Shown piece by piece: positions 7,435-9,504 of a stretch of 62,156 nt of DNA (positions within the stretch are counted from its first letter, which is position 1; each line of letters opens with the position of its first letter). Made by a program: the position numbers and the translations under genes. The stretch is from Minisyncoccota bacterium (GTDB lineage Bacteria > Patescibacteriota > Minisyncoccia > Phycocordibacterales > UBA9973), in contig DATDVS010000005.1 in NCBI GenBank assembly GCA_036517535.1, forward strand, positions 1-62,156, in the 5' to 3' direction. A model generated the notes under the pieces. The model saw only the letters and a program-made list of their open reading frames with translations, searched no databases and had not been told where the DNA came from.

Positions 7435-9504
7435 CTATTTATTGACCATTTTCACAAATTCTTCCTCGTTTAGGATTTTTACGCCGAGCTTTTCGGCAGT
7501 TTTGAATTTCGACCCCGGATCCGCGCCCGCCACCACATAGGAAGTGTTTTTGGAGACGGAGCCGGAAACTTTGCCGCCTAATTTTAGTATTCGCTCCTTA
7601 GTAATCTCCCGCGACATACGAGAGAGCGTCCCGGTGAGCACAAATTGGAGCCCGGTAAACTTGCCGGCTTTTACTTTTTCCGCTTTCTCCACCACTACGC
7701 CGTTTTTCTCCAGTTTTTTTATGAAATTTAAATTGTTTTTATCTTGAAAGAATTCATAAAGGCTCTGCGACACCGCTGGCCCTATATTTTCTATACTATC
7801 GATTTCGTCTAGGTCGGACCTAGCAGAATTGATTAATCTTTCCAGAGTTCTAAAATGCGTAGCTATGTCCCGCGCTGTTTCCTCCCCCACGTGCACGATG
7901 CCCAATGCCCACAGGAAGCGATGGAGGGGTATTTTCTTCTTGCTTTCGATCTCGCGCACGATATTATCCGCAGATTTTTCGCCAAAGCGTTCCAGTATCT
8001 CAATATCTTCTTTCTTTAAAGTAAAAATGTCTGCGGCATCAGTGATAAGCCCTTCATCTTTGAAACGCCGCAAGATCTTGGGCCCCAGCTCGTATATTTC
8101 AAATACTGACACAAAATGCTCCAGCGCTCGCTCATTCTTCGCCGGACACTTCTTGTTCGAGCAGAAATATGCTACGGATTCTTTAAGGTCCGACCTTGGG
8201 GAATTTTTAAGGTCGGACCTTTTCTTTTCGAGTTTCGTATTGCATGTCGGGCATTTCTCCGGCATTTTGAATTTCCTTTCCTTGCCGGTACGCATATGGG
8301 TCAGTACCTCCACCACTTTCGGGATCACGTCCCCGGCTTTCTCGATCACCACCGTGTCGCCGATTTTGAGCCCCAAGCGTTCTATCTGGTCCATGTTATG
8401 GAGCGTCGCCTTGCCTACCATTGAACCGGCTACCAGGGTAGGCTCAAATATTGCAAGCGGAGTAAGCACCCCTGTACGGCCTACATTTACCCGGATATCC
8501 TTCACTATGGTCGTCGCCCGCTCGGCCGGATATTTATAGGCCGCAACATAGCGCGGAGCTTTGCCGACGACACCCAAGACCTCTTGAAATACCACAGGAT
8601 CCACATGGATCACAATGCCATCTGTGCCATACATAAATTTAGTCCGAATTTTTTCGAATTTTTTTATAAAAACAATAACTTCATTTAAATCCTGGCAGAT
8701 CGCATCATGCATATCGACTTTAAAACCGATCTTTTTTAAAAATTGGTGCTTCTCCGAATGCGTTTTGAAATCCGAACTGGCAATGTCGTAAGCGAAAAAG
8801 TCCAGTTCGCGCTCACGAGCAAGCCGGGGGTCGAGCTGGCGGAGAGAGCCGGCTGCGGCGTTGCGGGTATTGGCAAAAGGGACTTTCCCTTCACGCTCCT
8901 GCTTTTTATTTAACTTCTCCAGCGTCTTTTTCGACATCACCGCTTCGCCTCGGACTTCAATATGGATCGGCGGGAAAAGGTCGGACCTTTTTGAATTCCC
9001 AAGGTCCGACCTTGAGGAGCCGAGGATTAAAGGTATCGAGGGGATTGTTTTTAAATTCTCCGTGATATCTTCCCCCACAAACCCATCGCCCCTGGTCGCA
9101 CCCCTCCTGAACTCCCCTTTTTCATAAATGAGGGCTACCGCCAGCCCGTCAAACTTTACTTCACAGAAATAATTGAATTTTGATCCCGGGATCAATTTTT
9201 TTATTCTTTTTTCCCAGTCATATAATTCCTCCTCTCCGAACACATCATTAAGCGAAAGCATTCGCGTCCTGTGCTTTACCTTTACGAACTTATCCAGAGG
9301 TTTCCCGGCCACCCTGTTCTCCCCAGCATTCGGGTCGTAGAATTCCGGATACTGCTTGAGGAGGGACCTTAATTCCCGGGTCAAAGAATCGTACACTTCA
9401 TCTGTGACTTCCGGGGCGTTCTCTGTATGGTAGAGGTCTCGTAACCTGGCGATTTCCGCCCGCAATTTGGTTATTCTCTGCCCTATTTCCTTCTTATCGC
9501 TCAT
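7435..9504 (-). CDS. ligA: NAD-dependent DNA ligase LigA (carries two R1 insertions and one solo arm)
   Basis: 689 aa; adenylation motif [11 protein letters not shown] fold, Zn finger CPTC...C..C, HhH, C-terminal BRCT. Confidence 0.95.
7809..7823. repeat. R1 solo arm (perfect 15-nt palindrome CTAGGTCGGACCTAG) inside ligA
   Basis: Read directly; encodes ARSDLD in LigA. Confidence 0.4.
8185..8221. repeat. R1 palindromic element, in frame in ligA (Zn-finger loop)
   Basis: AAGGTCCGACCTT GGGGAATTTTT AAGGTCGGACCTT; coding strand reads [14 protein letters not shown]. Confidence 0.9.
8977..9013. repeat. R1 palindromic element, opposite loop orientation, in frame in ligA
   Basis: AAGGTCGGACCTT TTTGAATTCCC AAGGTCCGACCTT; coding strand reads [14 protein letters not shown]. 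Confidence 0.9.

Follow-up and report, generated by a model that had tools for sequence, protein, structure and literature searches.

The DNA considered here is a contig of a Minisyncoccota bacterium (NCBI GenBank assembly GCA_036517535.1, contig DATDVS010000005.1, positions 1 to 62,156); the whole stretch of 62,156 nucleotides (nt) is referred to as ‘the window’. Five of its conserved housekeeping genes (ligA, ileS, argS, comEC and recJ) contain copies of a short repeated hairpin, termed ‘R1’, which in the zinc-finger loop of the DNA ligase gene ligA (8185-8221) consists of an arm AAGGTCCGACCTT, a loop GGGGAATTTTT and a second arm AAGGTCGGACCTT, 37 nt in all. An earlier reading of the sequence (the original prediction) had described a repeated palindrome of two complementary 13-nt arms around a loop, with two copies in ligA, one each in ileS, argS and recJ, and a diverged copy in comEC. 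Both the structure and all of these positions were recovered by a covariance model built from 22 family members and run unfiltered over the whole window, which finds exactly six full copies (34-54 bits, E <= 1e-6), the next match scoring 13 bits (Table 1). The 13-mer AAGGTCSGACCTT itself, allowing at most two mismatches, is matched 14 times in the window against 1.2 expected, and none of 100 dinucleotide-preserving shuffles reaches 14.

Occurrence of R1 in the window

All six copies lie inside long minus-strand open reading frames (ORFs), and all five host frames are intact. Each copy has the form AAGG-N5-CCTT, a loop of 10-11 nt, and AAGG-N5-CCTT again, with TCSGA arm cores in five copies and a compensated variant in the sixth. 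The copy in argS is identical to the zinc-finger copy of ligA at 36 of 37 positions; the comEC copy has arms (AAGGTCTGGCCTT / AAGGCCAGACCTT) that are perfect complements, and its flanks are those of the longer ligA copy described below; the recJ copy falls in the linker between the DHHA1 and OB domains. The hairpins are predicted to be stable, with folding energies of -18 to -33 kcal/mol and z-scores of -2.7 to -6.2.

Four of the copies are translated as (K/L/S)RSxL-xNSx-RSDL, much as the original prediction had it for the family at large, and the other two depart from that peptide. Because the recJ copy is only 36 nt long, its second arm is in another frame and is translated as GPTL, while the comEC copy stands in a different phase altogether and encodes QGLALDSLKARPF. 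What is conserved is thus the nucleotide hairpin and not the peptide.

Two further sequences resemble single arms. The 13-mer TAGGTCGGACCTA in ligA, once listed as a solo arm, differs from the arm at two positions and encodes SARSDL, part of a motif, SAR(S/Q)DL, that many LigA orthologs share in the form ARSDL or ARQDL; it is therefore probably native sequence, and its interpretation as the remnant of an insertion was rejected. The palindrome AAGGACGGTCCTT between argS and ileS reaches 10 bits, which is not significant for a full element, and the same arm occurs paired in a related locus (L171).

Table 1. R1 copies, arm-like sequences and host genes in the window
Feature	Position	Strand	Details
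R1 copy, 37 nt	8185..8221	.	ligA Zn-finger loop, aa 428-440; 54 bits
R1 long form, ligA adenylation domain	8967..9023	.	core 8977-9013, aa 164-176
R1 copy, ileS	43814..43850	.	aa 317-329; one arm mismatch; 48.8 bits
R1 copy, argS Arg_tRNA_synt_N domain	46858..46894	.	aa 62-74; 51.4 bits
R1 long-form variant, comEC	52427..52482	.	core 52437-52472, aa 106-118; 36 bits
R1 copy, recJ	53635..53670	.	36 nt, 10-nt loop, aa 426-438; 48 bits
Arm-like 13-mer TAGGTCGGACCTA in ligA	7809..7823	.	two mismatches; probably native
Solo palindrome AAGGACGGTCCTT, ACSGT arm variant	44888..44900	.	argS-ileS intergenic leader; 10 bits
Host ligA, 689 aa, intact	7435..9504	-	matches solved LigA structures, E 1e-147
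Host ileS, 1317-aa ORF, intact	40847..44800	-	Pfam
Host argS, 583 aa, intact	45328..47079	-	Pfam
Host comEC, 492 aa, intact	51310..52788	-	Pfam
Host recJ, 553 aa, intact	53286..54947	-	Pfam
aa, amino acids.

Distribution in other genomes

A search across related genomes, as proposed at the outset, was made with the pattern AAGGTCSGACCTT-N9-12-AAGGTCSGACCTT (35-38 nt) in GTDB data holding one genome per species (596 Gb). At least 115 contigs contain the exact pattern, where an estimated 0.002 or so would be expected by chance. The titles of the matches listed are almost all Patescibacteria, and include Kaiser-, Nomura-, Moran-, Yonath-, Zambryski-, Lloyd-, Yanofsky-, Taylor- and Collier-bacteria, Paceibacterota, Minisyncoccia and a few Saccharimonadia; several genomes among them have four to six or more matches each. 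Six of the matches listed stand under other taxon names. Two of these, L049 and L107, are labelled Pseudomonadales and are probably mis-binned, to judge from a sub-variant loop, GTCAGTAAAC, that they have in common with the Patescibacteria contig L078. The exact pattern has no match in 2.9 million IMG/VR virus contigs, and a phage vehicle was rejected on that ground.

The element had been supposed to be new to the Candidate Phyla Radiation (CPR), and the literature bears this out so far as it was searched: neither 13-mer was found in any searchable full text, and a keyword search found no description for CPR genomes. In Rfam the best match on the element is a partial one to a leader terminator, at 19.7 bits against a gathering score of 44; the only match in the window that reaches its gathering score is a tRNA.

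The hosts found elsewhere include IleRS, LeuRS, a ValRS-like enzyme, PurL, UvrA, UvrB, SecA, TopA, a protein of SMC/RecN type, RNase R, IF-2, PheT, GatA, GatB and MnmA. Confinement to intact ORFs, which holds without exception in the window, is less strict outside it: of the 122 exact copies among the matches listed, 92 stand in open frames that reach 150 aa or more, a further 12 have a frame of 80-149 aa, and for 18 the frame is shorter than 80 aa, so that 15-25% of these copies lie outside long ORFs. No copy in an ORF introduces a stop codon. The three reading phases are used in the ratio 62 : 21 : 9 by the exact copies in ORFs among the matches listed, the RSDL frame being favoured, and the loops are mostly oriented to encode K/N/S/G. 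The 36-mer of recJ recurs, identical, at other sites in four other genomes.

These counts come from DNA that was retrieved by means of the element. A sample not chosen in that way, 1.11 Mb around argS orthologs of 58-64% identity, yields about 42 family members, all of them within 25 of the 80 loci, the other 55 having none. The average in the DNA of these relatives is about one family member per 26 kb, while the window has six in 62 kb. A simple scan of the same sample finds 38 family members, every one of them within a long open frame, where the coverage of such frames would lead one to expect 90%.

Structure of the core and of the long form

The core of R1 is a 13-bp stem (AAGG-N5-CCTT) that closes a loop of 9-12 nt. 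The particular 13-nt arm, taken originally as the defining feature, proved to be one case of a wider design, in which the ends are constant and the cores vary while remaining complementary. In the DNA not chosen for the element, hairpins with 13-bp stems and 10-11 nt loops in ORFs are almost all of the form AAGG-N5-CCTT or AAAG-N5-CTTT; in 1.17 Mb there are 192 hairpins with a stem of 13 bp, where shuffled sequence gives 10. Their N5 cores are TCSGA (that of R1), ACWGT, GCWGC, CCTTG / CAAGG, CCAGA / TCTGG and TTAAA / TTTAA, and a loop repertoire (GGGGAATTTTT, AAGAATTCAAA / TTTGAATTCTT, AAATCTTCAAA and GGACTCCCTT) is common to the core types. R1 is thus part of a ‘superfamily’ with differing but complementary arm cores.

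In 114 of the 122 arm pairs among the matches listed, the central base of one arm is the complement of that of the other (C..G or G..C), which argues for a hairpin and not for two independent palindromic binding sites. The eight pairs with the same centre are direct tandem repeats; those at L066 7630, L093 4989, L068 3681, L096 2779, L102 3460 and L109 2073 are duplications of an arm plus spacer (units of 22-25 nt) and not hairpins, and L066 and L096 are on contigs labelled Saccharimonadia. Many R1 loops are themselves palindromic, and solo arms are usually central in longer palindromes. Both orientations relative to transcription occur, and mismatches within the stem, read on the sense strand, comprise 11 G.T and 8 A.C, with no excess of G.U as a sign of selection at the RNA level.

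A longer form, GGC-TCCTC-arm-loop-arm-TTCCC-GCC (about 53 nt), adds to the core a 5x5 internal loop (TCCTC / TTCCC) and a short outer helix. It is represented in the window by the first ligA site and by comEC, in different reading frames. In ligA it has an outer helix (8967-8971 / 9019-9023), a 5x5 internal loop (GGGAA / GAGGA) and the 13-bp stem, and its terminal loop, TTTGAATTCCC, is inverted relative to the other copies; the predicted fold has an energy of -31 kcal/mol. The internal-loop sequence is fixed; that of the outer helix varies yet still pairs. In 12 of 22 copies the first four outer pairs are Watson-Crick throughout, where controls give 2.7. Among 13 copies at different sites, selected by their arms and internal loop and not by outer pairing, four of the five pairs show double changes, with 93.8% of positions paired, a result matched by none of 500 shuffles.

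A fixed internal loop combined with a covarying outer helix fits a shape that would be recognised by a trans-acting factor. It may be, although we hold this only tentatively and as something less than likely, that the hairpin, and the 53-nt form above all, is the substrate of an undescribed, Patescibacteria-specific system, such as a hairpin-specific machinery for the insertion or copying of DNA that would put short structured cassettes into genes and leave no target duplication, or else a selected DNA or RNA signal in housekeeping genes, in genomes where non-coding space is almost lacking. A pseudoknot between the terminal and the internal loop (GGGAA with TTCCC), judged by eye, was dropped, as it holds in one loop orientation only. 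In the IleS linker of L143, the arms AAGGTCAGTCCTT and AAGGTCTATCCTT stand 24 nt apart with GAGGA and GGGAA between them, facing inward, as would be seen if two long-form elements met there or if a copy had been permuted.

Effects on the host proteins

Alignment of the LigA of the window with that of E. coli (2owo) leaves a gap of 12 aa at the element in the adenylation domain and one of 11 aa at the element in the zinc finger, E. coli having neither, which bears out the longer zinc-finger spacing that had been proposed. Most LigA proteins of Parcubacteria are also without both inserts, and a double RSDL appears in only 7 of 120 LigA homologs (69-100% identity), which represent four lineages besides the window's own species. 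At the first site most orthologs read L-x-KPF-PEY-IEVRGE with no insert. At the level of DNA, an empty ortholog has AAT AAA CCC TTC CCG CCA where the filled site has GGC TCC TC-(37 nt)-TTC CCG CC; the left flank is new, nine host bases have been replaced, and the right flank, TTCCCGCC, is already present in one empty ortholog (P0080), which is consistent with the use of microhomology.

The net gain in length differs between hosts. It amounts to 12 to 13 aa at the first ligA site, 8 to 12 aa at the second (the zinc-finger loop), 10 aa in ComEC, 5 aa in RecJ, 4 to 6 aa in ArgS and 4 aa in IleS, with up to 17 aa in one IleS ortholog. The expectation of about 12 aa for every host is thus borne out for LigA and roughly for ComEC, and not for RecJ, ArgS or IleS; instead of a clean insertion of 36 nt, the hosts of the window show net gains spanning 12 to 39 nt, with host codons replaced. 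A target-site duplication, which alignment to orthologs might have revealed, was sought at 125 copies, and the length distribution of flanking direct repeats there equals that of a shuffled control.

The original prediction had also suggested a test for surface loops. In an AlphaFold model of the window LigA (mean predicted local distance difference test score, pLDDT, 69, from a shallow alignment), both inserts are among the coil segments with pLDDT below 50, at residues 164-175 and 429-444.

Two of the other sites lack R1 in every ortholog examined. No comparable hairpin insert stands at the ileS site in any of 57 IleS orthologs (L119 has an unrelated one), and no R1 was found at the recJ site in 33 syntenic or 120 database orthologs of RecJ. 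The nearest relatives available for such comparisons are 86% identical (LigA) or at most 73% identical (RecJ), and a look-up of clusters for close relatives found no length variants that would allow filled and empty sites to be compared.

Three observations concern the zinc-finger loop of LigA in particular. The copy at 8185 is the sole one of the 125 with a 6-nt flanking direct repeat (TTCTTT, window 8179-8230). On the plus strand, antisense to ligA, it presents a hairpin followed by a T-run and so resembles an intrinsic terminator. The LigA of P0004 (86% identical) has a different insert, TTPSPLLHKEGAKSSPPYEGGDKRGG, where the window has R1.

Orthologous sites over time

At some sites, copies in related genomes can be compared. 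The comEC site has the same loop and flanks in the window, L163, L135, L155/6 and L120, and the orthologous stems differ at two base pairs, both of them fully compensated; 35 other orthologs are empty. At the argS site, hairpins of the same loop type occur in one clade with the cores ACWGT, GCWGC, AGTCG/GTGAC and AAAGCCWGG (those with other cores than R1 being in L122, L151, L163 and L142), together with decayed and single-arm versions. A neighbour-joining tree of RecJ, ComEC and IleS, meant to tell vertical from lateral spread, places the argS-site hairpins in one clade; its deep branches, on which a reading of the patchy distribution at comEC would depend, are star-like.

The linker of IleS (after SVHLxxWPK) is a hot spot of a broader kind. 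Hairpins of some sort occur there in about 35 of 48 loci, most of them unrelated local ones. In L188 (8914-8950), GCCAAAAATGTCAAAG (encoding W-P-K-M-S-K) is followed by its inverted copy, one arm being conserved host codons, and hairpins with such a W-P-K arm, present in several orthologs, look like local inverted duplications made by template switching. In L163 and L193 the arms in this linker are identical and the loop is inverted. Template switching between short inverted repeats is described, in PMC8604942 and PMC8794818, as homogenising arms and inverting the spacer. Since both outcomes are expected from that process, perfect stems are by themselves no proof of selection.

Other short hairpin families are also present in ORFs of relatives (L151 14462; L195 2302; and L155 745 / L178 786 / L135 369), examples being CCCCTCTCCTT-ATT-AAGGAGAGGGG and ACCCCCACACCAAA-GAT-TTTGGTGTGGGGGT.

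Origin and spread of R1

Identical 37-mers stand in unrelated genes and in distant genomes, and copying between loci must therefore occur. A burst in this lineage, relatives that mostly lack the element, and one variant common to separate candidate phyla suggest a repeat that is mobile and non-autonomous; three of the six copies in the window are at sites without R1 in any ortholog examined. On balance, then, R1 is probably a hairpin repeat of Patescibacteria, and mainly of Parcubacteria, that is non-autonomous and either selfish or close to neutral; a history of spread, filtering and persistence can be proposed for it as follows.

An active variant, with TCSGA arm cores, would be copied into further places in its genome and, now and then, from one genome to another, without target duplication and often with the replacement of a few host codons. 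These two features of the insertions point to either of two mechanisms. In one, a HUH/REP-like enzyme specific for single-strand hairpins would act in trans; in the other, an existing copy would be the donor for template switching guided by microhomology. The copies that survive would be those that are in frame, free of stop codons and translated as a hydrophilic peptide within a surface loop or linker that tolerates insertions and deletions (‘indels’); as a result of such filtering, the element would seem to be inserted in frame in essential genes. Once fixed, a copy would persist for a long time, while template switching between its arms would homogenise them and flip the loop, so that old copies would drift in sequence and yet stay hairpins.

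Several points weigh against this proposal. A Pfam scan of 40 window proteins (30 larger and 10 smaller) shows no transposase. The boundaries of the insertions and the direction of change are read from distant orthologs. The N-domain of ArgS, the linker of IleS and the zinc-finger loop of LigA carry many kinds of hairpin, and part of the pattern may therefore arise without a mobile element. Finally, the compensated changes, the conserved internal loop and the location of 38 of 38 copies in ORFs against an expected 90% could mean a selected function.

That last possibility is the rival that survives best, and we regard it as unlikely. It holds that R1 is a nucleic-acid signal recognised by a Patescibacteria-specific factor (an uptake or recombination signal, the site of a dimeric protein, or a hairpin for the processing or pausing of mRNA) and that it is tolerated in coding sequence as these genomes have little non-coding space. 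Besides the compensatory changes in orthologous copies, the conserved 5x5 internal loop with its covarying outer helix, and the complete confinement to ORFs of the family members in the sample not chosen for the element, it can draw on the recurrence of the same 13-nt arms across many candidate phyla, on the stability of the hairpins and on a window rich in competence genes (pilins, PilC, ComEC, RecJ and RecA). A signal in use, however, would sit poorly with so sporadic an element, missing from 55 of 80 related loci and from most orthologous sites, and present at best about once per 10 kb, far below the density of known uptake sequences. Related genomes have a different arm core at each site and no genome-wide motif, and many copies are visibly decaying. 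Both orientations relative to transcription are used, and the balance of G.T and A.C mismatches on the sense strand gives no sign of selection at the RNA level; the rarity of tandem arm pairs (8 of 122) argues against two independent protein sites. The alternatives offered in the original prediction, a palindrome for uptake or protein binding and a hairpin acting as RNA, find little support for the same reasons.

It is likewise unlikely, and slightly more so, that no mobile element is involved at all, the hairpins being made in place by template switching (‘quasipalindrome mutagenesis’) at indel-tolerant loops, with R1 as the most frequent outcome of a mutational bias. The many unrelated hairpins held by the same loops in orthologs would follow from this, as would arms that are conserved host codons (such as GCCAAAAATGTCAAAG in L188) and the surplus of 13-bp hairpins over shuffled sequence, and the homogenised arms and inverted loops seen here are documented consequences of the process (PMC8604942 and PMC8794818). 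Template switching of this local kind nevertheless copies adjacent sequence, and cannot yield the same 37-mer in ligA, argS, ileS, recJ and distant genomes. The shared loop repertoire, together with flanks (GGCTCCTC...TTCCCGCC) that are common to ligA and comEC in different frames, shows copying between loci, and comparison with the empty LigA site, for which there are distant relatives only, suggests that the arms and loop have no counterpart nearby.

A MITE (miniature inverted-repeat transposable element), cut and pasted by a DDE transposase through the 13-bp arms as terminal inverted repeats, is very unlikely. Two inverted 13-nt arms, multiple copies and bursts in some genomes are what such an element would show, and the copy at 8185 has its 6-nt direct repeat. 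The absence of target duplication over the 125 copies, the variable net size with loss of host codons, and the microhomology of the flanks argue against it, as do arms that are palindromic in themselves and loops that often are. No longer element bounded by the arms turned up, in the course of work that included no systematic search for one, and arm pairs more than 500 nt apart look separate. At 35-38 nt, R1 is shorter than any MITE known to us.

Chance similarity or an assembly or adapter artefact has a negligible probability and is refuted by 0 of 100 shuffles, by many independent projects that nonetheless yield almost only Patescibacteria, by the in-frame location and by the orthologous conservation of some copies. 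A parS-like or chromosome-organising site was rejected as well, as gene order is conserved but the positions of the element are not.

Implications

If R1 is the selfish repeat proposed here, the Candidate Phyla Radiation would join Rickettsia and organelles as a place where palindromic DNA of that kind is translated within essential genes; at 37 nt, or 12 aa, the form it takes there is an extreme miniature. The family is present in at least ten named candidate phyla and in universal marker proteins (aminoacyl-tRNA synthetases, SecA, IF-2, TopA, UvrA/B and LigA), and it therefore affects alignments, phylogenomics, structure prediction and the quality control of metagenome-assembled genomes for these lineages. 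R1 leaves no target duplication, keeps its internal loop, has an outer helix that covaries and persists for long with compensated changes; together these features make it a tractable case for separating mutational maintenance, by template switching, from selection of hairpins, and for tracing the factor that would mobilise it. Its hot-spot loops show where essential enzymes can accept an insertion.

Other features of the window

In the IleRS encoded in the window, a histidine-phosphatase (His_Phos_1) domain interrupts the body of the synthetase, and the C terminus carries a long extension. This architecture recurs in another Parcubacterium, and a LeuRS elsewhere has a NUDIX insert; the loci outside the window with such domain inserts in IleRS or LeuRS are L033 3665-7255 and L011 1990-5037. 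The gap between argS and ileS (44756-45327, about 570 nt) is unusually long and G+C-rich, contains the solo palindrome AAGGACGGTCCTT, and gives as its sole match to an RNA family a weak T-box-like one on the minus strand (44796-44941; 18 bits against a gathering score of 93).

Two copies of an inverted repeat of about 75 nt, TTAATCCRCCRAAATTTTT ... AAAAATTTAGGCGGATRA (10584-10659 and 59494-59568), each stand directly upstream of a prepilin-like (N_methyl) gene, and may serve the pilin genes as a common leader or a regulatory hairpin. An AT-rich palindrome, ATATTTCAATATTTAAATATTT, occurs twice (9993-10021 and 11249-11276). Four intervals (238-3171, 24453-28577, 51310-54947 and 58498-61388) are dense in genes for the uptake and processing of DNA, which comprise an AddA-like helicase-nuclease, FtsK, RecA, ComEC, RNase H, RecJ, several prepilin-like genes and PilC.

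Comparison with known systems

The DNA uptake sequences (DUS) of Neisseria and the uptake signal sequences (USS) of Pasteurellaceae occur about once per kb, follow one genome-wide motif and arise by point mutation. R1 resembles them as a short motif of a naturally competent lineage, frequent in genes in preferred frames and found in inverted pairs. It differs in that it occurs at most once per 10 kb, is almost always a hairpin pair, arises by insertion and has differing cores in relatives, with several arm cores within one genome.

The perfect inverted repeats of Nematomorpha are, like R1, embedded in translated genes, with structure and protein function kept together. There, however, the arms encode conserved parts of the protein and the repeats are site-specific and up to 284 bp long, whereas R1 is short, dispersed and encodes an extra loop. 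Hairpins formed by template switching (PMC8794818, PMC8604942) share with R1 the perfect arms, the multi-base compensated changes and the inversion of the spacer, and local inverted duplications of host codons are found at the same hot spots as R1. The process is nonetheless local, and R1 consists of identical 37-mers at unrelated loci and in unrelated genomes.

Repetitive extragenic palindromes (REPs) are extragenic and have a GTAG or CGTC tag at one end (PMC3733652). REPs and the REPIN elements resemble R1 as imperfect palindromes of 20-40 nt, often in inverted doublets, that burst in some genomes and are missing from relatives; neither they nor R1 make a target-site duplication, and what is conserved in both is a single-strand hairpin that is structured and bulged. 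R1 differs in being mostly intragenic, in having arms that begin with AAGG and end with CCTT, and in lacking a GTAG/CGTC tag in its flanks. No gene for a RAYT, the IS200/IS605-like Y1 transposase that mobilises REP and REPIN elements, was found among the 40 window proteins scanned.

The closest likeness in behaviour, as the original prediction had proposed, is to the Rickettsia palindromic elements (RPEs): a repeated, hairpin-forming palindrome stands in frame in conserved housekeeping genes that are left intact, the extra peptide falls in surface regions, and some copies are found between genes and decay as time passes. The part of that proposal which stands is the behaviour of R1 as a multi-copy, translated element, absent from most orthologs and lodged in low-confidence loops; the part which does not stand concerns length and lineage. 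RPEs, for which Ogata et al. in 2000 is reportedly the source (RPE-1 to RPE-8), are about 100-150 nt long and add 30-50 aa, whereas R1 measures 35-38 nt (about 53 nt in the long form), adds 4-13 aa and belongs to Patescibacteria; its arms are near-palindromic, its loop is often palindromic and host codons are often replaced. Judged by length and lineage, with the RPE sequences themselves left uncompared, R1 acts like an RPE and is not a member of that family.

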